From Escherichia phage vB_EcoM_PTE-Eco09: a stretch of DNA of 64,000 nt. The notes beneath the pieces are model-generated. The model made no database searches. It worked only from the letters and a program-made list of their open reading frames with translations, and was not told where the DNA came from. Shown here in pieces: positions 20,470 to 57,021 of this stretch. Position 1 is the stretch's first letter. Every line of letters starts with the position of its first letter. Where the stretch lies: the sequence record PQ306574.1; one strand, given 5' to 3'. Position numbers and translations under genes: made by a program.

Positions 20470-21165
20470 ATGGACTATCAAAAACAATATGAACGATTAA
20501 TTGAACGCGCAAAGCATAGAACGCTTGAAGGATATAAAGAAAAACATCATATTATTCCTCGTTGTATGGGAGGCGATGATAGTCCAGAAAATATAGTTGA
20601 GTTAACGGGGTCTGAACATTTTGTTGCTCATCAACTTTTAGCAAAAATGCATCCAACACATCACGGAATTGTACATGCGGCGAAAATATTGATGGGGTCT
20701 ACCAACTATAACAATAAACAATTTGAGTGGGTAAGAAAACTTGCGGTTGAGACTTCAAGAAAATTTCATACAGGAAGAAAAAGATCCGAAGAGACTAGAC
20801 GCAGAATATCAGAAGCAACTAAAGGAAAGAGAAAAGGAATTAAATTATCTGAGGAACATCGACAGAAATTATCTGCTTCATTAAAAGGTAGAGTGTTTAC
20901 AGAAGAACATAAAAGAAATATTGCGTCAAGAGAAATTACACAAGAATGGAGAGACAACATCTCTAAAGCGGGTAAGGGTAGAAAGTTGTCACAAGAAAAC
21001 GTAGAGAAATGGAAACGTATTCATAACACGCCAGAAATGAAACAAAAATATAGTGAATTGTCAAAGTCTCGTCCGTATTTCACCTGTCCTCATTGTGGAA
21101 AAACAGCCAATCAGGGAAATTATGTTAGATGGCATGGTGACAACTGCAAGAAGAAGGTGGTATAA
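20470..21165 (+). CDS. HNH homing endonuclease with NUMOD3-like repeats
   Basis: HHIIPRCMGG..N..EL..EH HNH motif, then repeated basic S/T-E-E-x-R-x-K motifs (GRKRSEETRRRISEATKG, KLSEEHRQKLSASLKG); inserted upstream of gp4. Confidence 0.8.
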   Translation: MDYQKQYERLIERAKHRTLEGYKEKHHIIPRCMGGDDSPENIVELTGSEHFVAHQLLAKMHPTHHGIVHAAKILMGSTNYNNKQFEWVRKLAVETSRKFHTGRKRSEETRRRISEATKGKRKGIKLSEEHRQKLSASLKGRVFTEEHKRNIASREITQEWRDNISKAGKGRKLSQENVEKWKRIHNTPEMKQKYSELSKSRPYFTCPHCGKTANQGNYVRWHGDNCKKKVV

Positions 21166-21638
21166 TGGGTAATTGCAACACATATAGGGGTAAATATAGA
21201 CCTGAAAACCCGGAGAAGTATAAAGGCGACCTGAAAAAAATCGTCTACAGGTCAAGTTGGGAATTACATATAATGAAATTTTTAGACCGCAATCCTAGAG
21301 TTGCAAAATGGGGATCTGAGACCGTAGTAATTCCTTATGAGTCATCAACAGACGGAAAAAGACACAGATACTTTATGGATTTTTACGTTAAGTTTGATGA
21401 TGGCAAGGAGCATTTATGGGAAGTTAAACCAGCTAAAGAGACAAGGCCACCGGAAAAGCCAAAAAGAATGACCGCAAAGACAAAGCAACGATATATGCAT
21501 GAAGTGTGGACGTACACAAAAAATACTGAAAAATGGTTAGCTGCCGTGAAATTATGCCAAAAGCATAACATGGAGTTTAAGATCATCACCGAACATGCAT
21601 TAAAGAAAGTGTTTGGCTTTAAAGGGCTTAACAAATAG
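21165..21638 (+). CDS. 4: Head completion protein (gp4-like), PD-(D/E)xK-like motif
   Basis: 157 aa (T4 gp4 about 150 aa); D..E.K motif (MDFYVKF..EHLWEVKP); position before gp2. Confidence 0.55.
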   Translation: MGNCNTYRGKYRPENPEKYKGDLKKIVYRSSWELHIMKFLDRNPRVAKWGSETVVIPYESSTDGKRHRYFMDFYVKFDDGKEHLWEVKPAKETRPPEKPKRMTAKTKQRYMHEVWTYTKNTEKWLAAVKLCQKHNMEFKIITEHALKKVFGFKGLNK

Positions 21639-21649
21639 AGGATAATATT

Positions 21650-22471
21650 ATGAGCGTATTTGAAATAATCACAGAAGACGAAAAGCCGTCTCCCCAAAAA
21701 CGAAAGTCTAAACAGTGGGTCGAATTGGGTGTAGAATTTGCGAAAGCAAAAGCCAAAGGAATGACAGCTAAAGCATTTGCAGATTCTAAGGGAATAGCCT
21801 ATGCGACTTTCACTAAAAGTATGTCTCGTTATGCAAGCGAAATTAAAACAGCAATAGAAGTTGAAAAACTAAAAGGGAAAGGCGCAAAGGGTCTCAATAA
21901 GCAGCAACGCGCAATGATGATGATTAATGATTTTCGTGCGTCTATGCGTGCTGTATCAAAGAGTCGTCCTAAAGAAAAATCACAGGAGTGGTTTATGAAG
22001 ACCATCAAGGATGGTGTAAAAGGTCATCAGGTAGTAAAACCACAAGTGGGACGGATCTATACTTATGCGTATAACCCAAAATATCGGGATTCTTTGCCAT
22101 TCTTTGACCGATACCCCTTGATTATCTGTCTAGGATTTGGTACATCTAAAGCGGGAAACGAGATTATGCTAGGTTTGAACTTGCACTATGCGCCACCTAA
22201 AGCTCGCCAGCAGTTCTTAGAAGCGTTGTTGCGACAATACGCGAGTACACCTACTCTTAGTAATAAAACTCGTTTAAAAATTAAATGGAGTGATGTTAAA
22301 GGTATGAGAGGCGCAGACCACATGATCAAAGCATATTTGCCTGGACACATCCAAACAAAACTGATTGAGATCGCACCAAAAGATTGGAGCACGGTTGTGT
22401 ATCTTCCGACCTACCAGTTTATGAGCAAAGACAAGAAATATGATGCTCGTAAGGTGTGGAAATTGTTTTAA
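21650..22471 (+). CDS. 2: DNA end protector protein (gp2-like)
   Basis: 273 aa (T4 gp2 274 aa); basic N-terminal region; called on size and synteny only. Confidence 0.5.
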   Translation: MSVFEIITEDEKPSPQKRKSKQWVELGVEFAKAKAKGMTAKAFADSKGIAYATFTKSMSRYASEIKTAIEVEKLKGKGAKGLNKQQRAMMMINDFRASMRAVSKSRPKEKSQEWFMKTIKDGVKGHQVVKPQVGRIYTYAYNPKYRDSLPFFDRYPLIICLGFGTSKAGNEIMLGLNLHYAPPKARQQFLEALLRQYASTPTLSNKTRLKIKWSDVKGMRGADHMIKAYLPGHIQTKLIEIAPKDWSTVVYLPTYQFMSKDKKYDARKVWKLF

Positions 22472-22527
22472 TGATTATAAAAATAGCGCCGCTGGTGACG
22501 GCGCTTTAATTTACAGGATATAAAAAT

Positions 22528-23670
22528 ATGACTAAAGAAAGAAAACCTAATTCAGTTCCTAGACCGTTCGGTGTATATCTAGAGAAGGTAAAAGAACATA
22601 TCCCATGTGGTTATGAATGGTATGGTCTAGTCGGAGAATACACCAACGCAAAGGATACTAGATTTAAGTTAAAATGTGATAAAGGACATACGTCAACTAT
22701 ATTTAGTTTAGATACTCTTAGACTGGGTGTAAAATGTCATGAATGCACTGGTCGCTTACGCTGGACCAAAGAAAGAATAGATGATGCATTAAAGACAATA
22801 TGCGGAAAATACACATTGATCGATATTCCTAAAGGATATACAGGTCAAATGACAGAATTACTAATGCATTGTCCTGATTGCAACAAAAACTTTACTAAGA
22901 AATTTATATATCTTTATCAAGGTCATGGTTGTCTCTGCGTTAAGGGTAAACGCTGGAATAGCGAAGAGTTGCTAACAGAGATGAGGAATAACCAAAAAGA
23001 CCACGAAGTCATTGGCTATGTGTCTGATTATAAAGATTTTTATGAAAGAAATATCTTAGTTAAATGCCCTAATGGACATGAATATACTGCATCCGGTCAC
23101 TCGTTTTTAGTTAATGGATCTAGATGTAAACTATGTTCAGGTAAAAACAAGAAGTCAACTGAGCAAGTAGTAAAGGAAATAACAGATAAGGCGATTGATA
23201 AAGGTGATACATTTGTTGATTTTGTTGGCGGTGAGTATAGAGGAATGCTAAAAACAAAATTGGTAATGCGTTGTAGTAGCGGACATGAATTTACGCCAAA
23301 CTTAGGAGACTACGTATCAAAAAATAGCGGTTGCCCTATGTGTAGCAATCATGGATTTAAGAGGAATAAACCTGCATACATTTATGTACAAACTTTATAC
23401 AAAGAAGATGTTGCGGTTGCTATAAAATTTGGTATAACCAACAACAGATTAATAAAAAGAATACAAAACCAATCTTCAAAATCTATATTTCGTCATGAGT
23501 TGACATTTTATAAAAAATACGATAACGGTGATGATGCTCTTTCTATGGAATGTGCAATAAAGAAAAAGTATAAAGGTTTCTATGTTAGTAAAGAAGATAT
23601 GCCCGATGGATATACAGAAACGCTATCCATATCAGAGCTACAAAACGTCATTGATATGATCAATAGTTAA
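22528..23670 (+). CDS. Zinc-ribbon repeat protein with C-terminal GIY-YIG-like (T5orf172-type) domain
   Basis: Four CxxGHE[FY]..G..CxxC repeats; C-terminal KPAYIYVQ..IKFGIT..R..E resembles a GIY-YIG/T5orf172 fold; splits the gp2-gp3 pair. Confidence 0.5.
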   Translation: MTKERKPNSVPRPFGVYLEKVKEHIPCGYEWYGLVGEYTNAKDTRFKLKCDKGHTSTIFSLDTLRLGVKCHECTGRLRWTKERIDDALKTICGKYTLIDIPKGYTGQMTELLMHCPDCNKNFTKKFIYLYQGHGCLCVKGKRWNSEELLTEMRNNQKDHEVIGYVSDYKDFYERNILVKCPNGHEYTASGHSFLVNGSRCKLCSGKNKKSTEQVVKEITDKAIDKGDTFVDFVGGEYRGMLKTKLVMRCSSGHEFTPNLGDYVSKNSGCPMCSNHGFKRNKPAYIYVQTLYKEDVAVAIKFGITNNRLIKRIQNQSSKSIFRHELTFYKKYDNGDDALSMECAIKKKYKGFYVSKEDMPDGYTETLSISELQNVIDMINS

Positions 23671-23674
23671 GATT

Positions 23675-23700
23675 AAGCCCGTCAATGACGGGCTTTTTTT
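23675..23700 (+). terminator. Rho-independent terminator
   Basis: AAGCCCGTCAATGACGGGCTT hairpin followed by TTTTTTT. Confidence 0.6.
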
Positions 23701-26889: not shown

Positions 26890-27084
26890 ATGGAATTGGA
26901 TATGGTTAAAGCAAAATTTATGGGTAAGGATAAGAGCGGTAAAACATTTGTTATTAATAGAACATTGTTTCGCTCTGACCTTAAGTGGGTAACACAACAA
27001 TTTGCGGAAGTCAACGAGGCAGTTGTGACATGCTTCGTTGATGATAAAAAAGTTTTTGAAATTGATCGTCGTGGGGGTGTCTAA
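26890..27084 (+). CDS. Hypothetical protein (64 aa)
   Basis: ATG with AAGGTGA RBS. Confidence 0.5.
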   Translation: MELDMVKAKFMGKDKSGKTFVINRTLFRSDLKWVTQQFAEVNEAVVTCFVDDKKVFEIDRRGGV

Positions 27085-31791: not shown

Positions 31792-32181
31792 ATGTTTAAA
31801 TTATCTCAAAGAAGCAAAGATCGGCTTGTTGGTGTACATCCAGACCTGGTAAAAGTCGTTCATCGTGCGTTAGAACTGACTCCGGTCGATTTTGGTATTA
31901 CGGAAGGTGTGCGTAGTCTAGAAACGCAAAAGAAATATGTTGCGGAAGGTAAATCTAAGACTATGAAATCTCGTCATCTTCACGGTTTCGCGGTTGATGT
32001 TGTAGCGTATCCGAAAGATAAAGATACATGGAACATGAAATATTACCGCATGATCGCTGATGCGTTTAAACAAGCTGGTCGAGAATTGGGTGTTCCTGTT
32101 ATCTGCGGTGTTGATTGGGTTACTTTTAAAGACGGACCGCATATGGAACTCGATAAAAAGGTATATCCAGACCCGGTATAA
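31792..32181 (+). CDS. Endolysin, L-alanyl-D-glutamate peptidase (M15 family, T5 Lys-like)
   Basis: RALELTPVDFGITEGVRS, SRHLHGFAVD, AFKQAGRELGV, GPHMELD resemble T5 endolysin as recalled; H-x6-D and H zinc ligands. Confidence 0.8.
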   Translation: MFKLSQRSKDRLVGVHPDLVKVVHRALELTPVDFGITEGVRSLETQKKYVAEGKSKTMKSRHLHGFAVDVVAYPKDKDTWNMKYYRMIADAFKQAGRELGVPVICGVDWVTFKDGPHMELDKKVYPDPV

Positions 32182-32190
32182 CTAAAATAA

Positions 32191-32213
32191 AGCCAGCTTA
32201 GTCTCTGGCTTTG
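32191..32213 (+). terminator. Hairpin after the endolysin (weak terminator)
   Basis: AGCCAG-CTTAGTCT-CTGGCT stem; short U-run. Confidence 0.35.
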
Positions 32214-32226
32214 TGAGGATTATAAA

Positions 32227-32802
32227 ATGGCTTTTAAATATTGGGATGAATCCCTACAAAACGAGATAAAACTTAGATATGCTCATATAGAGGGTATCTT
32301 ATATTATAGAGTCGATAGTAAAGCTATCAAAGGACGACCATTAGGGAGTAGATATAAACACGGCGATTTAGTTAAAGTCAGAACAAATAAAGATGGTCAT
32401 CTTAGATTTTGGCATAGTAGAGATGACGGTCTTCCTAGAGTTCATCTATTCGTGCATAGGGTTGTTTGGTTTCTAGAACATGGGACGCAAGTTAGATTAA
32501 TTGATCATATTGACGGTAATCCTGCGAATAACAATCCTCCAAATCTTAGGGAGGCAACCGACGCGCAAAATCAACATAATAGAAAGAAGAAGTCTAAAAA
32601 GTTTTCTAGTGTGTATAAGGGTGTTAGTAAGTGTAACAGGAAGGATTTGCGTAAGAAATGGAGAGCTAGTATAATGGTCAACCTACAAAGACATGTTCTT
32701 GGACAATATGACACAGAAATCGAAGCTGCAATCGCTTATGATAATGCAGCTAGGAAATTTTATGGAGAATATGCTCTATTGAATTTCCCAGATCCAAAAT
32801 GA
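32227..32802 (+). CDS. HNH homing endonuclease with AP2 DNA-binding domain
   Basis: HIDGNPANNNPPNLREATDAQNQHN HNH motif plus AP2-like YKGVS..WRASI..YDTEIEAAIAYDNAARKFYGE. Confidence 0.75.
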   Translation: MAFKYWDESLQNEIKLRYAHIEGILYYRVDSKAIKGRPLGSRYKHGDLVKVRTNKDGHLRFWHSRDDGLPRVHLFVHRVVWFLEHGTQVRLIDHIDGNPANNNPPNLREATDAQNQHNRKKKSKKFSSVYKGVSKCNRKDLRKKWRASIMVNLQRHVLGQYDTEIEAAIAYDNAARKFYGEYALLNFPDPK

Positions 32803-41373: not shown

Positions 41374-42150
41374 ATGGCAATATCTTCTGGATGGGTAGGA
41401 TCATCTGCGGTGTCCGAGACTGGTCAACGGTGGATGAGCGCCGCAATGCAAGCTGTACGCTTAGGTCGTCCGGCGTATATGTCGGCAATGGTCGGACGCT
41501 CTAAAGAGATTCATTATAGCATTGGTGCTAGTAACTCTTACAATAAAGACACTCTTATTAACTGGATGAAAGCACAAGGATCTACTCCTGTAGTAATTAC
41601 TATCACGGGTGATATTGTTTCCCAATCTACTGGAGTTCCTTGTCTTGACTTCCCTAGCTCGTTAACAAACGAATATGTAACATTGATCATTAACTCCGGT
41701 GTGACTGTCTACGGACGTGGGGGTAATGGTGGTAGTAACGCTGCTGGCGCTGCTGGTGGAAACGCAATCAATAACGCTATCGGTACACGTCTACGAATTA
41801 CAAATAACGGTGCTATCGCTGGTGGCGGCGGTGGCGGCGGTGGCGGTAACAGGGGTAAACTATCATTTGGTGGTGGCGGTGGTCGCCCATTCGGTGCTGC
41901 CGGGTCTTCCTCTAATATGGGTTCTGGTGCAACCGCTGGCTCCATTTCCGCTCCGGGTAAAGGATCTGTTGGTTCGGGGTCTCTTAGTGCATATACAGGC
42001 GGTGCGGGCGGTAACGTTGGTGCTGCTGGAGGAAGATGTAATACTCATGGGAACTGTACAGAATATAACGGTGGTGCTGCTGGTAAAGCCGTTACTGGTA
42101 ATGCTCCACGCTGGGATAAAGTAGGCACGATCTACGGCGATCGCGTGTAA
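41374..42150 (+). CDS. Glycine-rich receptor-binding adhesin-like protein (T2/T6-type gp38-like), orphan
   Basis: N-terminal GWVGSSAVSETGQRWMSAAMQAVRLG..ITITGDIV resembles the gp37-binding domain of T2-type gp38 as recalled; C-terminal poly-Gly motifs (GGGGGGGGGN, FGGGGGRPFGAAG) alternating with variable segments. Confidence 0.55.
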   Translation: MAISSGWVGSSAVSETGQRWMSAAMQAVRLGRPAYMSAMVGRSKEIHYSIGASNSYNKDTLINWMKAQGSTPVVITITGDIVSQSTGVPCLDFPSSLTNEYVTLIINSGVTVYGRGGNGGSNAAGAAGGNAINNAIGTRLRITNNGAIAGGGGGGGGGNRGKLSFGGGGGRPFGAAGSSSNMGSGATAGSISAPGKGSVGSGSLSAYTGGAGGNVGAAGGRCNTHGNCTEYNGGAAGKAVTGNAPRWDKVGTIYGDRV

Positions 42151-48168: not shown

Positions 48169-48197
48169 TTGACAATAAGAAATGGGAGTAGTAAAAT
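48169..48197 (+). promoter_or_regulatory. Early promoter module with stem-loop over the -10 box
   Basis: TTGACA-N17-TAAAAT; inverted repeat GGGAGTA/TACTCCC (48184-48203). Confidence 0.6.
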
Positions 48198-48228
48198 ACT
48201 CCCATCTAATCAAGAAGGAGAATCAACA

Positions 48229-48501
48229 ATGCGTAAGATGTTTAAATCCGGTGTTGCCTATGTTTTTAAATCTGAGCAAGCACATAAAGACTTCTTAGAT
48301 GATGAATACGAAGGGGTGAAAGATACCTACGAAGTCATCAAGAATGGGTTTACTGTTCTTAAAGTGTCACCTGTTGGTTATGTAAGTGAAATCTCGGTTG
48401 ATGGGAAAACATACACCGCTAAAGACTTTGATCCGCGTTGGGAATTTATGCTGCTTCCGTGTGAGCGCATTCTGTTCCGTGCTGTTCAATTAGTGAAATG
48501 A
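48229..48501 (+). CDS. Modular family protein, short form (90 aa)
   Basis: AAGGAGAATCAACAATG leader; a K/E..GF.VLKV.. module also present in the next two ORFs. Confidence 0.5.
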   Translation: MRKMFKSGVAYVFKSEQAHKDFLDDEYEGVKDTYEVIKNGFTVLKVSPVGYVSEISVDGKTYTAKDFDPRWEFMLLPCERILFRAVQLVK

Positions 48502-48515
48502 TAGAGGATTATATT

Positions 48516-49082
48516 ATGGTACAGAAAACGTATAAATTGTATCCGGCTAAGTCTTCAAATGATGCTGTTTTTGAACGAGGTCGTTATTACACTTTCCGTA
48601 ATGCTGAGTCCGCAGAGGAATTTGTTAAACGCTACCAACAACATAACAAGTTCCTGTATGGTGTGCTTCACAGGGGCTTTAAAGTTCTTACGGTTAATGT
48701 TATGGGTAAAGTGTATTTGGTAGAAACTCATGATTATGAGGGTGCGTCAATCATGATTGATGCAAGCGAGCGCAAATACTTTAAACGCATCACTAAAAAG
48801 CAGTTTGAAGAAATGAAACCAGTTAAGAAAGAAGAATCTCTGGAAGATCTGATTAACTTGTTTGGTAAAGTTCGCTCTATCTCCTTTGCGATTGAAGATG
48901 ACATTACCGACAATAAAATCTTTATCAAGAACGCGGAAGACCTGAAAGAGTTCCTTATTGAAAATAGATCTCGGCTGGAAACCTTTCTTGAAAGTGAAAT
49001 TATTCGACATGATACCTACGCTAAATTCAGCGCCGATAAAGTAGCTGAACTGAAAGAGATCCAAAAGTCATTTAACGCTTGA
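48516..49082 (+). CDS. Modular family protein (188 aa)
   Basis: AGAGGATTATATTATG leader; shares NERKYFKRI(T/S)K and a C-terminal LFG..xxLKxFLI module with 49139..50317. Confidence 0.5.
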   Translation: MVQKTYKLYPAKSSNDAVFERGRYYTFRNAESAEEFVKRYQQHNKFLYGVLHRGFKVLTVNVMGKVYLVETHDYEGASIMIDASERKYFKRITKKQFEEMKPVKKEESLEDLINLFGKVRSISFAIEDDITDNKIFIKNAEDLKEFLIENRSRLETFLESEIIRHDTYAKFSADKVAELKEIQKSFNA

Positions 49083-49107: not shown

Positions 49108-49138
49108 ACTCCCGTCTAAACAACGAGAGGATTATATT

Positions 49139-50317
49139 ATGGCTAAATTCTTTGAAGGTCATTACTATGCATTCCGTGAAGGCGGTAAAGATGAGTTTCT
49201 AGACTTTTCTCGCTATTCAATTATTCTGACCGATGCTTCGCGCCGTGGTCATATTCGGGTTGCTGAAATCGTAGAAAAGGGCTTTAAAGTATTAGAAAAA
49301 GATGACCACGGTCATGTTATTACTATTGAAGCTGGAGATGTAGTTTATTCCGCTGAGGATATCGTTTATTATTGGTCTACTATGATTATGCACAATGAGC
49401 GCAAATACTTTAAACGTATCTCAAAAGAGGCATACGAAGCGATGAACAAGAAAGAGGATGCAATGCCGACTTACTTTGAAAAAGGTAAATGTTATTCGTT
49501 TACCCCAGAAGGTTTGCAAGAATTTAAGCGATTCTGGGGAGAGCATGACCCAGAGCACAAAGAAGCCATGAAACTTGTTGATTTTGTCGAATATGGCTTT
49601 TTAGTTGAAGAAGAATTGCACGGATCAGCTACCATGATCACCGCGAAAGGTGAAACCGTCAAGGCGGACCGTTTTTGTGACCAATGGAATTGCTTGTTTG
49701 ACGGTAGCGAATTTGAATACTTCGCGGAAATCACGAAACAACAATTTCATTCTATGCAAGCGGATGGTCAGAGATTTAAAGTAGGTGAACGCTACAAACC
49801 AAATCAGCATAATTTGCCATATTGGTTTACCGCTGAAACTGTATCAAGTCATGTTGTTGAAATTGTTCAAAAGCTGGGACAAGGATTTAAGGTAACTAAA
49901 GTAGATGATTATGGAAGTGTTGACGCGGTTGAAATTGATGGTGTAGAATATACACCGAAATCTTTCGGTCTTTGCTGGTATCACTTGATCAGCAATGATG
50001 AACGTTATAACTTTGTTGAACTGCCATCTGAACCGGAAGAAGCACTAGAAGATCATGATCATCTGTCTGAACTGGTTAAGCTGTTTGGTGATCTGCCGGA
50101 TGGTGTAGGCGTGGCGGTAATGGGTGAAGGTGCTGTTATCCGAAACCTGAAAGACTTTAAAAAGTTCTTGATTGACATGCTGCCTAAACTTGATGATAAT
50201 CTAGATACAGATATTCAGAATCGCAAAGAAATTGTTAAAGAGACTGAAAAAGAGATCGAAGAGATTCGAGCAATTCGCCAGAAGGTGAAAGCAGTAAAGA
50301 AAAAAGTTAGTGCTTGA
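49139..50317 (+). CDS. Modular family protein, long form (392 aa)
   Basis: AGAGGATTATATTATG leader; internal repeats of the module seen in the two preceding ORFs. Confidence 0.55.
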   Translation: MAKFFEGHYYAFREGGKDEFLDFSRYSIILTDASRRGHIRVAEIVEKGFKVLEKDDHGHVITIEAGDVVYSAEDIVYYWSTMIMHNERKYFKRISKEAYEAMNKKEDAMPTYFEKGKCYSFTPEGLQEFKRFWGEHDPEHKEAMKLVDFVEYGFLVEEELHGSATMITAKGETVKADRFCDQWNCLFDGSEFEYFAEITKQQFHSMQADGQRFKVGERYKPNQHNLPYWFTAETVSSHVVEIVQKLGQGFKVTKVDDYGSVDAVEIDGVEYTPKSFGLCWYHLISNDERYNFVELPSEPEEALEDHDHLSELVKLFGDLPDGVGVAVMGEGAVIRNLKDFKKFLIDMLPKLDDNLDTDIQNRKEIVKETEKEIEEIRAIRQKVKAVKKKVSA

Positions 50318-50341: not shown

Positions 50342-50371
50342 ACTCCCACTTAACAACGAGAGGATTATATT

Positions 50372-50866
50372 ATGTGGGTACAAGATGTTTGGTATACTGT
50401 AACTAAAGAAAACCTTGACGCATTCAGCGACCAATCTTGCGCTAATAGCTCAATTGCTGGTATACTTACTGATGTGTTTGGTGGTGTAGATAAAATTCGT
50501 TTTAAAGTTGTTGTTAGTTCGCTGGGTCAGGTGAAAGATCTTTACACCGAAGATAAAGACCTTGATCTTGAACTTCGTCTTCGTATTGATAATGCAAGTC
50601 TAGGTTATTGGTTTGAAGATAACGAATATGAATACTTCACGCCAGCAATTAAAGTTTTTGCGACTAAACTGGAAGCTGTACTGAATCTCCGACCAATTAA
50701 TGTTGACGGATACATTATCAAAAATATTCAGGATTGGGAGTTGTATCTAGATCAGGTTATCCGAAATAGTAAGCAGGAAGCCGCTAATAAGAAGCGACAA
50801 GAGATTAAACAGCTTAAAGCTGAACTAGAAGCTAAAGAAAAAGAATTAGCAGAACTGGTAAAATAA
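50372..50866 (+). CDS. Hypothetical protein with C-terminal coiled coil (164 aa)
   Basis: AGAGGATTATATTATG leader; KKRQEIKQLKAELEAKEKELAELVK. Confidence 0.55.
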   Translation: MWVQDVWYTVTKENLDAFSDQSCANSSIAGILTDVFGGVDKIRFKVVVSSLGQVKDLYTEDKDLDLELRLRIDNASLGYWFEDNEYEYFTPAIKVFATKLEAVLNLRPINVDGYIIKNIQDWELYLDQVIRNSKQEAANKKRQEIKQLKAELEAKEKELAELVK

Positions 50867-50910: not shown

Positions 50911-52773
50911 ATGGAAAAACTAATCAAAGACATTACAGAGATCGCAACGGGTAAAGAAAACGAAGTAAGCAAAGAGAACGCGAACAAAGACGCGCGAACA
51001 TTCCCGACACGTCGAGATCTGATTGCTGGCGCTGTGTCTAAACAGATTGCTAAAACCGTGTTACCTGAGCACATCTATAAAGCGCATGTAGACGGTGATA
51101 TTCATTATCATGATATGGATTATGCACCAGCTATGCCGTTTACTAACTGCTGTCTTGTTAATCTCAAAGACATGTTAGAGAATGGTTTTAAATTGGGTAG
51201 CGCACAAATCGAAAGTCCGAAATCAATCGGCGTTGCTTGTGCTGTAACCGCTCAAATTATCGCACAGGTGGCAAGTCATCAATATGGCGGGACCACAATT
51301 GCAAACATCGATCAGGTTTTAGCGCCATACGTTGAGAAAACATATCATAAACACCTTGCTGATGCCGAAACCTACGGAATCAAAGCTGATACTCTCTATG
51401 CACAAGAGAAGACAGAAAAAGAAACTTTAGACGGGTATCAAGCGTTGGAATATGAAATCAACACTTTGTTCTCCACCAACGGTCAAACGCCTTTTGTGAC
51501 TTTAACCTTTGGTATGGGTACTAGCTGGGAAGAAAAACTGATTCAGAAAGCGATCCTGAACGTTCGAACTAAAGGTTTAGGTAAAGATGGTATCACTCCG
51601 GTGTTTCCTAAGCTGGTGATGTTCTTAGAAGAAGGATTAAACCTTAAACCGGAAGATCCGAACTACGACATTAAGCAACTTGCATTGGAATGTTCGAGTA
51701 AGCGTCTTTACCCTGATTATATCTCTGCGAAGAATAACCGTAGCATCACTGGATCTAGTGTTCCGGTTAGCCCGATGGGTTGTCGTAGCTTCCTGGGTGT
51801 GTGGCATAATGAGAAAGGCGAAGAAGTATTAGACGGACGTAATAACTTAGGTGTTGTGACTCTGAATCTTCCGCGTATTGCCCTTATTGCCGCGCGTCGT
51901 GCTGGTAAAGCGTCTGTAATGCGCAGAATTGAGCTATTCGAACAAGAGCTAGCTAATCGTATGCCTATTTGTTTTGATGCGCTCATGAGTCGCGTAGACG
52001 CTTTAAAAGGCGCTAAAGCCAATGTTGCTCCTGTACTATATACCGAAGGTGCATTTTTCCGTATTCATCAAAACGATGAAATTTTGGAAGTGTTGAAAGA
52101 TGGTCGCGCTAGTATCTCTCTTGGATATATTGGTTTACATGAGGTATTGAGCGTCCTGTTTGATGTTCATCCGTTTGATTCGGAAGATGCGCAGCGATAC
52201 GGTAAACATATTCTTAAGATCTTGCGTCATTATACTGAAAAATGGAAGGACGAAACCGGACTTGGGTTTAGTCTTTACGGTACTCCAGCCGAGAGCCTTT
52301 GCTATCGATTTAATCGACTGGACCGAGAGCAATTTGGTATTGTTAAGGGTGCTACCGATAAAGACTGGTACACCAACTCATTCCACCTTGACGTAGACCG
52401 GAAAGTCACTCCATTTGAGAAAATTGACTTTGAGAAAGATTATCACTGGCTGGCGTCCGGTGGCATGATCTCTTATGTTGAGTTCCCAGACATGAAAAAC
52501 AACCTGAAAGGTCTTGAAACTGTAGTAGACTATGCAATGGATAAATTGCACTACTTCGGTGTTAATACTCCTTCTGATGTATGTCATGTATGCGGATCTA
52601 CTAAGGAAATGAGAGCGACCGAGTCTGGTTTTGTTTGTCCTGATTGCGGTAATGACAATCTGGAAAAGATGAATGTTATCCGTCGCGTTAGTGGATATCT
52701 TGGATCTGTTGATCTGCGTCCATTCAACCACGGGAAACACTCCGAGATGGTAAACCGCGTTAAGCACATGTAA
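50911..52773 (+). CDS. nrdD: Anaerobic ribonucleoside-triphosphate reductase
   Basis: 620 aa; long stretches resemble T4 NrdD (NANKDARTFPTRRDL, PFTNCCLVNLKDMLENGFKLGSAQIE, C-terminal glycyl-radical RRVSGYLG); no intron. Confidence 0.9.
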   Translation: MEKLIKDITEIATGKENEVSKENANKDARTFPTRRDLIAGAVSKQIAKTVLPEHIYKAHVDGDIHYHDMDYAPAMPFTNCCLVNLKDMLENGFKLGSAQIESPKSIGVACAVTAQIIAQVASHQYGGTTIANIDQVLAPYVEKTYHKHLADAETYGIKADTLYAQEKTEKETLDGYQALEYEINTLFSTNGQTPFVTLTFGMGTSWEEKLIQKAILNVRTKGLGKDGITPVFPKLVMFLEEGLNLKPEDPNYDIKQLALECSSKRLYPDYISAKNNRSITGSSVPVSPMGCRSFLGVWHNEKGEEVLDGRNNLGVVTLNLPRIALIAARRAGKASVMRRIELFEQELANRMPICFDALMSRVDALKGAKANVAPVLYTEGAFFRIHQNDEILEVLKDGRASISLGYIGLHEVLSVLFDVHPFDSEDAQRYGKHILKILRHYTEKWKDETGLGFSLYGTPAESLCYRFNRLDREQFGIVKGATDKDWYTNSFHLDVDRKVTPFEKIDFEKDYHWLASGGMISYVEFPDMKNNLKGLETVVDYAMDKLHYFGVNTPSDVCHVCGSTKEMRATESGFVCPDCGNDNLEKMNVIRRVSGYLGSVDLRPFNHGKHSEMVNRVKHM

Positions 52774-52844: not shown

Positions 52845-52873
52845 GCTCACATCGAAAACAACGAGAGGACAAC

Positions 52874-53413
52874 ATGATGATGTTTTGTGTACTGAACAAA
52901 GAAGTTAAACTTCGTAAACTGGAAATTGGCGATGGTGTTGTTGTTAAAATGCACGCTAGCACATTGACTAGTTTTAATTTAAAGGAAAGTTTTTTTATTA
53001 GAGGAACGGTGGTTAATATCTGCTGGAGTCAAGGCGAAGGAATCCGTAGCTTTTGCGTAATTGACGATGATAATAACCTGTATGTGATTCGCTATCATAA
53101 TAATTCTGTATTGGTCTATACCGACAATTCACGAGAATTGTATACTCTTGAATTTGTTAAGCGTACTGATTGCGATCGATTTGTTCGTGCTTATGAAGAA
53201 GATGGCTGTTTTGCGACTGAAACAGAAACAAATGAATATGTTCCTATGGAAGTAGGGGCAGAAATTAAACACAAGATCACGGATCGTATTTTTAAGGTTG
53301 TGGCGGTTGCTCATACTCAATTTGTAGCGCAAGCGCCGGATGAAGAATTTATTATCTACAATATTGGTAATGCAAGTTCTCATTTTCATAATGTACTATA
53401 TCGCGACCTTTGA
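52874..53413 (+). CDS. Hypothetical protein (179 aa)
   Basis: ATG after the promoter; GAGAGGA RBS. Confidence 0.55.
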   Translation: MMMFCVLNKEVKLRKLEIGDGVVVKMHASTLTSFNLKESFFIRGTVVNICWSQGEGIRSFCVIDDDNNLYVIRYHNNSVLVYTDNSRELYTLEFVKRTDCDRFVRAYEEDGCFATETETNEYVPMEVGAEIKHKITDRIFKVVAVAHTQFVAQAPDEEFIIYNIGNASSHFHNVLYRDL

Positions 53414-53958: not shown

Positions 53959-53962
53959 ATGC

Positions 53963-53991
53963 TTGACGGGGATCGCGAGATCCCCTATACT
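53963..53991 (+). promoter_or_regulatory. Early promoter module with spacer stem-loop
   Basis: TTGACG-N17-TATACT; spacer palindrome GGGGATCGCGAGATCCCC. Confidence 0.55.
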
Positions 53992-54033
53992 ATATTCATC
54001 AAGACGAGATACAACTTTACAGGAGAATCAAAT

Positions 54034-54186
54034 ATGTGGACTTTACTGATTTGGGAAACTGAAAACGCACAAGTAGAAATCCGTGAATACGAATACCTAA
54101 GCCCAGCTTATCTATTAGCATCTCGCGGTGGTTACTATAAAGCGCAGATTGTAAACGAGTTCGGGGTAATTGAATATGAGTTCTGA
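54034..54186 (+). CDS. Small protein (50 aa)
   Basis: ATG after the promoter and CAGGAGAATCAAATATG leader. Confidence 0.45.
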   Translation: MWTLLIWETENAQVEIREYEYLSPAYLLASRGGYYKAQIVNEFGVIEYEF

Positions 54187-54679
54187 TACATACGGCAAGC
54201 TACGCTATGCCGATATTAAAGATTGTGATATGGTGAACGGTGAGGGAGTGAGAGTCTCCCTTTACGTTACCGGATGTTCACACGCATGTGATGGTTGCTT
54301 TAATGCTAGCCTACTCAATCCTAAGAACGGGGAACCATTCACCGATGATACAATGGGATTGATTCTGGATCTGCTTAGACCTGATTTTATTCAGGGGCTA
54401 ACATTCTTAGGTGGCGATCCATTGTATAAACGCAATTTAAAGGGTGTACAGCGGATCATCGATGAAGTAAAATCATGGATGCCAAATAAAGATATTTGGC
54501 TATGGTCTGGTTATACCCTTGACCAATTGAATGATGAGCAAAGAAAAATTGTAGAATCAGTTGACATGTTCATCGATGGGCGTTATATTAAAGATATGCC
54601 AACGAAGAAGCCGTGGCGGGGGTCTGACAATCAAGTACAATACAAGATTGTTAATAGTATTCCAGTGAAAATTATTTGA
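54176..54679 (+). CDS. nrdG: Anaerobic ribonucleotide reductase activating protein (radical SAM)
   Basis: YVTGCSHACDGCFN CxxxCxxC cluster; 167 aa; adjacent to nrdD. Confidence 0.8.
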   Translation: MSSDTYGKLRYADIKDCDMVNGEGVRVSLYVTGCSHACDGCFNASLLNPKNGEPFTDDTMGLILDLLRPDFIQGLTFLGGDPLYKRNLKGVQRIIDEVKSWMPNKDIWLWSGYTLDQLNDEQRKIVESVDMFIDGRYIKDMPTKKPWRGSDNQVQYKIVNSIPVKII

Positions 54680-54689
54680 GGTGATTATT

Positions 54690-55217
54690 ATGGAATGGGA
54701 AGTTGGTAAAACTTACAAGATTGAATGCGAAGCGTCGAAAGCCGAACTGACTAAATTTTCGTCGTCTATTAACAGATGTATTGTTGACTTGTTGGCTGGT
54801 CGCCCGTTTAGGGTAGAAGACCTTGACGATGATGGTGATGTTAGAGAAATTACTATTATTGGTAGTAATTTCGACTCTATGACGTTAAAAGAATCCCCTA
54901 TTGGCTGTTCCGGTGTGTGGTTTTGGTCGGGTGAGCGTCGTTTCTTTACCGAAGTTACTATTGAACCTAAGATTCCAGAATCGGAAGAAAAAGAAGAAGA
55001 CCTAACTTTAGAACGTCTGGGTCTGCTTATGGAAGCCTACGACATTCAGTTGATCGATAAGATGGGGTTACATAATAGCATTGCCAAAATTACTACCATA
55101 GAAGGTATTAAGAGCGTACTGGATGGTATGCCTAGCCGGATCGGTGCTATCCGCGAATACAAGCAAACGCGCGACCGTATGATCCAATTAGAATCACGTA
55201 TCAAAAATGAGAGATGA
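54690..55217 (+). CDS. Repeat-module family protein 1 (WEVGKTY module)
   Basis: MEWEVGKTYK..WFWSGERRFFTEV; GAGGTGA RBS. Confidence 0.5.
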   Translation: MEWEVGKTYKIECEASKAELTKFSSSINRCIVDLLAGRPFRVEDLDDDGDVREITIIGSNFDSMTLKESPIGCSGVWFWSGERRFFTEVTIEPKIPESEEKEEDLTLERLGLLMEAYDIQLIDKMGLHNSIAKITTIEGIKSVLDGMPSRIGAIREYKQTRDRMIQLESRIKNER

Positions 55218-55221
55218 TATT

Positions 55222-55707
55222 ATGAAATGGGAAGAAGGGAAGACATATAAGTTGGTTGGTGAGGACGAAAAGCGCATTTTGCGTGATTGTTGGCGTTACG
55301 AACAAAAACCTAATATTGATGGTGTGTTTACATATCTAGATAAACCATTTACTGTCGCTACGGTAGACCGTTGGGGTAATGTACGTTCAATCTATAATCA
55401 CGAAGGGGATTATATTAGTTCTATCGATGTTGGTGATAATATATGGTTTTCCGATGGCGACCGAGCGTGCTTCAAAGAAGTTTTATTGCCTGGTCATGAA
55501 TATGATCTAATAGACCTTCTCAAATTGGCGATGGATAATTATAAAATTCGCTTTGAATGCAAATCACATGCGGCTATCGGTGCTAATGCCTTGCGTCATA
55601 TCTCCAGTTTTGAAGAGTTGAAAGATTTTCTTGACAAAATGCCGGAAAGAGTGCAAGCTATACAGGAAGCAGAGAAAGCATTAAACGAACTTGATAAAAT
55701 CGGTTAA
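55222..55707 (+). CDS. Repeat-module family protein 2
   Basis: MKWEEGKTYK..WFSDGDRACFKEV; C-terminal helical tail similar to protein 1. Confidence 0.5.
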   Translation: MKWEEGKTYKLVGEDEKRILRDCWRYEQKPNIDGVFTYLDKPFTVATVDRWGNVRSIYNHEGDYISSIDVGDNIWFSDGDRACFKEVLLPGHEYDLIDLLKLAMDNYKIRFECKSHAAIGANALRHISSFEELKDFLDKMPERVQAIQEAEKALNELDKIG

Positions 55708-55719
55708 GGGGAATATATT

Positions 55720-56286
55720 ATGAAATGGGAAATTGGTAAAACTTACACCTGGAAAGATGAAAACGCTAAAACTGAGTTTATTACTAACGGAGAAGGTGTT
55801 CTTTCTCCACTTAACAGCGATATTAGTGCAGCTATTGGTGACAAGCCATTTACCATCATCGAGATCGATGGTAACGGTTGGATTGATGCAATAGAGCTAG
55901 ACGGTGTTTATCATACGGCGAAAACTGCTACAGGAAAAGACATTTGGACTGCAACATATTTCTTTAGTCCATTCGATCGAAAATTCTTTCGTGAAGTTGA
56001 AGAAGTTCCCCAGAAATGGGAAGTTGGTAAAACTTATACTTGGAAAGATGCGAATGCTATGACCGACTTCTGTCATTATGCTGAAAACGTATCTAATCTT
56101 AATTATGTTATTGCACGAGCAATAAATTATAGACCTTTTACTGTTAAAAATGTTCGTCCATGTGGGCAAATTGATGTAATTGAAATTGATGGTAAAGACC
56201 ATACTCTAATGAGCGCAACCGAAGATAGAGACCATAAGGAACTAGCTGGTTTATTGATTCTGATAGAAAATTCTTTCGTGAAGTAG
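55720..56286 (+). CDS. Repeat-module family protein 3 (two tandem modules; second module frameshifted at its end)
   Basis: MKWEIGKTYTWKDENA..FDRKFFREVEEV then KWEVGKTYTWKDANA..; the reading frame loses the module end about 56235-56250. Confidence 0.45.
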   Translation: MKWEIGKTYTWKDENAKTEFITNGEGVLSPLNSDISAAIGDKPFTIIEIDGNGWIDAIELDGVYHTAKTATGKDIWTATYFFSPFDRKFFREVEEVPQKWEVGKTYTWKDANAMTDFCHYAENVSNLNYVIARAINYRPFTVKNVRPCGQIDVIEIDGKDHTLMSATEDRDHKELAGLLILIENSFVK

Positions 56287-56291
56287 AAGAA

Positions 56292-56543
56292 TTGGAAGTT
56301 ATAACCACTGATTCTAAGATCGTTGGACAGTTGAAACGTCTGTTTAGTAGTCGTTACGGCCTGACAATGGTTAAATTTGGCGAAGCAAATGAAGGTAAAA
56401 CCTTTGAACGTTTCGATGATTTCATTGCGGCACTTGACAAGATGGATGAAATCATGCAAGATCGCCAGAAGATTAAAGACCTTCAAGAAGACATTAAACG
56501 TCGTGAAGTTGAATTTTTGATTGGTAAAGAGCGAGGTTGGTAA
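56292..56543 (+). pseudogene. Frame-shifted continuation of repeat-module protein 3 (probable disrupted gene segment)
   Basis: In the -1 frame from 56238 the DNA encodes GTSWFIDSDRKFFREVEEL.., homologous to the module end and continuing to 56543; there is no ATG start (the track start is TTG). Confidence 0.4.
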
Positions 56544-56544
56544 T

Positions 56545-57021
56545 ATGTTTGTTGTTGGTATGACCTATCAGTGGAAAAACGAACAAGCGCGTAAAGCATT
56601 TGCAACCAGTGATGCGAATCGTGTGATCTCCGAGTTTATCGGGGACCGTGCGTTTAAAGTCTTAGCTATTGATTCATCTAGTATACCTGAGTATGTTTCT
56701 GTGATTGAAATCGATGGTAAGGCTTACCAGTGTCCAGACAATGAAAAGGTTTATCTTTATGCTTGTAATTGGTTTTCGCCTACAGAAGATCAATATTTTA
56801 AAGTGGTATCAGCAGAGCTATCATCCGAAGCAATGATGCAACAATTCTTCAATAACTACGAAGTTTCTGTGCGTCGCTATGGCGAAGAAGAAGTGTTTAA
56901 AATCGATGATTACAATCAGTTTAAACGAGTATTCGCCACTAAGTTACAGCGTGACTTTGAACGTGACCAACGGATCAAGGAACTGGAAGAAGAACTAGAA
57001 AGATTAAAGGCTGAGAAATGA
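56545..57021 (+). CDS. Repeat-module family protein 4
   Basis: MFVVGMTYQWKNEQA..WFSPTEDQYFKVV; CGAGGTTGG RBS. Confidence 0.5.
   Translation: MFVVGMTYQWKNEQARKAFATSDANRVISEFIGDRAFKVLAIDSSSIPEYVSVIEIDGKAYQCPDNEKVYLYACNWFSPTEDQYFKVVSAELSSEAMMQQFFNNYEVSVRRYGEEEVFKIDDYNQFKRVFATKLQRDFERDQRIKELEEELERLKAEK

Follow-up and report, generated by a model that had tools for sequence, protein, structure and literature searches.

The two open reading frames found at 55720..56286 and 56292..56543 of Escherichia phage vB_EcoM_PTE-Eco09 (record PQ306574.1; the window is the whole 64,000 nt stretch which was analysed) are the pieces of one gene which was split by the loss of a single base. Sequence comparison places the window in Krischvirus, the RB49-like T4-type coliphages, and identifies the broken gene as the ortholog of RB49ORF049c. 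The split is almost certainly a simple indel and not recoding. The deletion itself is of an ordinary kind, either a mutation or a sequencing slip, and occurs in this genome only among the collections searched; we lean towards a genuine, very recent loss-of-function mutation as its most likely origin. For annotation, we recommend a single disrupted-gene entry covering 55720..56286 and 56292..56543, as the ortholog of RB49ORF049c and with a flag for read-level verification, rather than two hypothetical proteins or a recoding site.

Reading frames and the one-base deletion

The features described here between 54690 and 57021 are all on the plus strand. The first ORF (55720..56286), whose ATG is preceded by an AAGGGG Shine-Dalgarno sequence, codes for 188 aa ending in ...LLILIENSFVK*. 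It is made up of 173 native residues, comprising the whole of module 1 and all of module 2 but for the final helix and strand, followed by a 15-aa out-of-frame tail (ELAGLLILIENSFVK) and a TAG stop. The rest of the ancestral gene, residues 174-274, is found in the -1 frame at 56238..56543 with its TAA stop at 56541-56543. This frame is closed by a TAA at 56235-56237 and from 56238 reads GTSWFIDSDRKFFREVEEL and onwards without a stop to 56543, coding for the end of module 2 (GTSWFIDSDRKFFREVEEL) and a helical C-terminal domain, and its translation does not differ from the corresponding C-terminal portion of the intact orthologs. The second ORF (56292..56543, 83 aa) is the portion of this frame which follows a TTG start. 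Inspection of the two frames bore out the original prediction that the first ORF runs out of frame over a conserved module end while the other frame continues to 56543. The -1 frame had also been described as having no ATG of its own, which is correct for the sequence before 56367-56369, where an ATG is present as codon 26 of the 83-aa ORF.

The end-of-module repeat is present in frame at 55975..56004, where it encodes DRKFFREVEE, and again 287 nt downstream at 56262..56291, where it is out of frame and matches the first copy at 28 of 30 positions. The near-identity of the two copies had been correctly recognized from the letters, while the coordinates given at that time for the first copy (55973-56002) were off by 2 nt. 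The spacing of the module starts (55722 and 56013) is 291 nt and divisible by 3 while that of the module ends is 287 nt and is not, so that the window alone shows one base to be missing within module 2. Modules 1 and 2 have 51% protein identity and can be aligned with nine other copies elsewhere in the window, indicating that their likeness reflects homology and not chance.

Comparison with related phages located the missing base at 56236..56237, where the window has AA and the relatives have AAA (CATAAGG versus CATAAAGG). In base-by-base alignment (n = 4) the window reads CAT-AA-GG at 56233-56239 while FL20, kvi, G37-3 and RB49 all read CATAAAGG, and a gap at 56236 was also seen in the alignments with kaaroe and FL20. 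An 85-nt query spanning the site matched 53 Krischvirus (RB49-like) phage records, every one of which was 1 nt longer (53/53) and none of which was 100% identical; a search of the INPHARED phage collection for the truncated allele was likewise negative. The gene is annotated as a single 825-nt CDS (274 aa) in FL20, kvi, G37-3, RB49 and kaaroe, the CDS names including RB49ORF049c (AAQ15324.1), kvi_190 and kaaroe_124. When one A was inserted after 56237 the resulting protein was identical at 274/274 residues to that of FL38 (XAO16234.1), which argues that there has been no decay since the deletion event. Full-length ortholog clusters (100% query coverage) numbered 59, all of which were intact with lengths of 274-281 aa and identity down to 65%. 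The cluster which contains the intact protein has 58 members, of which the 15 listed are each 274 aa long.

The 26-mer carrying the deletion gave 0 DNA matches in IMG/VR, JGI metagenomes and GTDB genomes, whereas the intact 27-mer was found. Exact look-ups in a collection of 15 billion proteins returned neither the 188-aa nor the 83-aa product. The four-gene stretch from 54681 to 57021 (2.3 kb) matched 58 phage records at 92-99.7% identity. A 1-nt indel in an ancestral two-module gene, one of the explanations offered originally, was confirmed by these comparisons and could be located (A3 to A2, 56236-56237; 53/53 records 1 nt longer). Orthologs with two ORFs and independent starts, which had also been considered, were not found, each two-module ortholog having one intact ORF of 274-281 aa. 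The broken gene shares its nrdG-nrdH locus and its neighbours with RB49ORF049c and the other Krischvirus orthologs (FL38 XAO16234.1, kvi_190, kaaroe_124), and differs from them in that theirs is an intact 825-nt ORF while that of the window is split by the change from A3 to A2. Gene conversion from module 1 was considered as a source of the deletion and was rejected since the modules are similar in DNA only at their starts and ends and not at the site.

Possible recoding or use of the second frame

Programmed -1 ribosomal frameshifting or transcriptional slippage, either of which would fuse the two frames into the full-length protein, was judged to be extremely improbable. A -1 shift just after the AAG codon at 56236-56238 would restore the exact ancestral ...DHKGTSWF... 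sequence, and the tRNA-Lys of E. coli is shift-prone on AAG in other contexts, both of which speak in favour of recoding. The conserved Trp-Phe could be restored only by a shift within 56238-56246 (AAG GAA CTA GCT), however, and direct reading of 56238-56283, which takes in this usable interval, gave no X-XXY-YYZ slippery heptamer, as the first reading of the overlap had rightly held. The minimum free energy of 56225-56330 was -15.3 kcal/mol compared with a shuffle mean of -18.2 (z = +0.93) and 163 of 200 shuffles folded at least as well; this RNA folds no better than shuffled sequence and we found no stimulatory structure downstream. A run of two A residues cannot support transcriptional slippage. 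Furthermore the two-frame arrangement was present in 0/53 relatives, so that there is nothing conserved which could be called programmed. The programmed -1 sites of E. coli dnaX and of the phage tail-chaperone G/GT genes likewise have overlapping frames and a sensible -1 fusion product, but the window lacks the heptamer, the stimulatory structure and the conserved overlap, and its relatives encode the fusion directly. With slippery site, downstream structure and conservation of the split all absent, recoding was rejected, and the suggestion that the ribosome shifts frame here is unsupported. It is similarly far-fetched that the AA allele is a real selected variant which makes mainly the 188-aa module-1 protein with a little full-length product through tRNA-Lys slippage at AAG-G; if this were true, a GoF-like RNA-associated factor would be made as two isoforms in a set ratio.

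A functional split, in which both pieces are separate proteins and the second is made by reinitiation at TTG 56292 to give a new gene arrangement, was considered very unlikely. The distance from the stop (56284-56286) to this TTG, which lies 5 nt after the TAG, is short enough for termination-reinitiation, and natural single-module members of the family do exist (P0072, P0075, P0078, P0069). However, no recognizable Shine-Dalgarno sequence was found upstream of the TTG, in contrast to AAGGGG for 55720 and GAGG for 56545, and the first piece ends inside module 2 with a conserved structural segment gone. In the natural one-module variants, unlike in the window, an entire module has been removed cleanly and in frame, and the split arrangement of the window was found in no other genome searched.

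GoF-like modules, the paralog array and the predicted effect of the deletion

The modules belong to the GoF/Frd.2/MotB.1 family as judged by profile homology to the N-terminal domain of GoF. Compared with T4 GoF by hhalign, the 11-module profile aligned in 86 columns with residues 3-91 of GoF (95.2% probability, E 2.7e-8), a span which coincides exactly with the N-terminal domain as delimited by Kim et al. 2025 (PMC12152347). There were also matches to three PHROG families which bear the name 'goF mRNA metabolism modulator' (E 2.7e-10, 4.4e-9 and 2.3e-6). The same profile reached 24% probability with MotB.1, which is not significant. [quoted passage not shown] 2025, PMC12152347, section 2.2); the AF2 model obtained here also had FeoA and IdeR as its nearest solved folds. 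The predicted fold of the modules is a small beta-barrel of the SH3-like/LSm-like kind. T4 GoF is also called ComC-alpha and the family consists of early proteins, the T4 members being described as expressed early, dispensable under laboratory conditions and affecting mRNA level (PMC12152347); an RNA-related role may be proposed for the modules. Position G84 of GoF, at which the suppressor G84R is found (PMC12152347), aligns with the terminal E-x-x-F-F-x-E-V segment which is thrown out of frame in module 2 of the broken gene. [quoted passage not shown]

The repaired protein matched PHROG 5347 with E 2.5e-92, its residues 98-266 covering positions 1-165 of the 165 in the profile, and this PHROG takes in each of the four genes located between nrdG and nrdH (E about 1e-59 to 1e-92). 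None of the four paralogs had a Pfam match above threshold, and a PDB sequence search gave a chance-level match only. A search of a large protein collection with the 11-module profile returned 8 matches, all of them close paralogs, a number which was probably limited by the word-index prefilter, and added no wider members to the family. In the same neighbourhood a small ORF just upstream of nrdG (53959-54186) matched Pfam DUF7170 (E 2.4e-17), the only significant Pfam match among six neighbouring proteins tested.

Eight genes between 48169 and 57021 carry 11 copies of the GoF-like module of about 90 aa, in two clusters which flank nrdD (50911..52773) and nrdG (54170..54679). The first cluster contains 48169..48501, 48498..49082, 49139..50317 and 50372..50866, of which 49139..50317 codes for 392 aa with three modules. 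With the exception of 48169..48501, the module genes pair their modules with a helical, charged C-terminal domain. In the second cluster the broken gene is accompanied by paralog 1 (54690..55217, PHROG 5347 E 5e-66), paralog 2 (55222..55707, E 3e-59) and paralog 4 (56545..57021, E 1.5e-60), each with one module and a C-terminal domain; paralog 1 is a single CDS in FL20, kvi and RB49. Paralog 4, which has a GAGG Shine-Dalgarno sequence to itself, starts with an ATG 1 nt past the broken gene's ancestral stop. A conserved translation-initiation cassette of about 25 nt (AACAACGAGAGGATTATATTATG) was observed at 49116-49141, 50349-50374 and 52854-52879. This AACAACGAGAGGATTATATTATG cassette precedes three genes, two of them GoF-like paralogs, and a similar GGA(A/T)TATATTATG lies ahead of other genes at 50360 and 57445.

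The array also varies among relatives. Ortholog variants (P0069, P0072, P0075, P0078, P0083) include clean in-frame module-1-only or module-2-only forms and a chimera in which paralog 1 is joined to the end of the ortholog of the broken gene. Such variation in module number is suggestive of unequal recombination among the repeats at the module ends. In one short ENA contig, the C-terminal domain of the ortholog is frameshifted. In G37-3, a 2-nt deletion is present in the GAA-rich linker of paralog 1 (approx. 812-813, equivalent to 54992-54993 of the window) and two CDS are annotated. Like the break in the window it is a frameshift of a single isolate in the same tandem family, but it affects another gene at another site and removes 2 nt instead of 1.

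The repaired protein contains two tandem modules of about 96 aa, a poorly modelled linker and a helical C-terminal domain. Module 1 (55720..56007, residues 1-96) was assigned as a GoF-like small beta-barrel module from the AF2 model and hhalign, and module 2 (56008..56294) corresponds to residues 97-192 of the intact protein and is broken after residue 173. The module pattern is W-E-x-G-K-T-Y ... P-F-x-V ... G ... W-F ... R-K-F-F-x-E-V. The C-terminal helical domain with the stop codon occupies 56295..56543 (residues 193-274); in the AF2 model, linker residues 191-199 have pLDDT <50 and are followed by helices at 197-209 and 232-271. The C-terminal domain is highly conserved among orthologs.

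Loss of one A from the AAA run changes the frame beyond residue 173. A product of 188 aa is predicted, with module 1 intact, 77 residues of module 2 and a nonsense tail of 15 aa, and by the model it would lack the conserved last helix (180-185) and strand (186-189) of module 2 (WF...RKFFxEV) and the entire C-terminal domain. That domain is probably untranslated or only poorly translated from the AA allele, with weak reinitiation from the TTG without a Shine-Dalgarno sequence as the best that would be expected. The AA allele is thus most likely null or hypomorphic. Such a loss would be tolerated, as we propose, because the gene has seven paralogs in a set of eight and the T4 members of its family are dispensable in laboratory growth. 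Several observations indicate that it should be tolerable, namely the seven paralogs which are left in the window, the relatives in which module 1 or module 2 is naturally absent or a fusion with paralog 1 is present, and the independent 2-nt deletion in paralog 1 of G37-3.

Origin of the deletion

The preference for a genuine mutation was weighed against a sequencing or assembly error, by which the consensus would have lost one A while the phage itself carries AAA and a complete gene of 274 aa. Such an error is a serious contender, which we would place a little short of even. The change was found in this genome only and sits in a homopolymer, the repaired protein is a known protein, the ORF is intact in every relative, and short metagenome contigs of the gene also carry frame errors (e.g., P0082). 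A change in a single genome, within a homopolymer and with no secondary decay, has the look of a consensus or basecalling error as much as that of a mutation. The full-length ORF is kept down to 65% identity, implying that the protein matters in nature, and with such conservation in the orthologs a broken copy is somewhat unexpected. Moreover A3 is a short run and no strong mutational hotspot.

Against an error stand the results of an indel survey in which the whole window was compared with kaaroe and approx. 51 kb of it with FL20. Comparison with kaaroe gave 19 net frame-changing indel sites, and by the kaaroe annotation the indels fall in intergenic homopolymers (RBS spacers and terminator T-runs) or at the very 3' end of a gene. 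In the comparison with FL20 only 3 of these recurred, at 23694, 27073 and 56236. The T7 run at 23694 recurs unchanged in phage AV108, and the terminal G5 run of dmd (27073) has the same length in JSE and G5211. The site at 56236 is therefore the sole window-specific indel found in approx. 51 kb, and also the sole mid-gene one. The compared stretch contains 230 homopolymers of at least 5 nt (197 runs of 5, 27 of 6 and 6 of 7), and in comparison with the two relatives no window-specific indel was found in any of these. Error-prone platforms fail mainly at long runs while the affected run is of only 3 nt, and the other homopolymer length differences are intergenic or common to other phages. Systematic homopolymer error in the assembly was not supported, the other candidates at 23694 and 27073 being shared with AV108 and with JSE and G5211, respectively. 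With a single window-specific indel and the long runs unaffected, the balance tilts toward a genuine mutation, and the deletion would then be present in the phage DNA rather than in the assembly alone.

If the deletion is real, members of the GoF-like array around nrdD/nrdG would be individually dispensable and subject to fast turnover, in keeping with the gain, loss and fusion of modules and with the other breaks observed among relatives. The case itself is an ordinary one, a single-base deletion or a lone consensus error in a member of a dispensable, fast-evolving accessory family.

Two other features of the window were recorded in the course of these comparisons. The G-run at the 3' end of dmd (27069-27073) is G5 in the window and G4 in kaaroe, FL20 and RB49, which alters the C-terminus from ...DRRGVSNDH* to ...DRRGGV*; with the same length in JSE and G5211 as in the window, this looks like a natural polymorphism of the antitoxin tail. 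The segments 20474-23667, 32143-32786 and 41838-42069 were unmatched or approx. 88% identical to kaaroe/FL20 compared with 97-99% identity for the backbone, and these are variable or replaced segments, possibly swaps of mobile elements or accessory genes.
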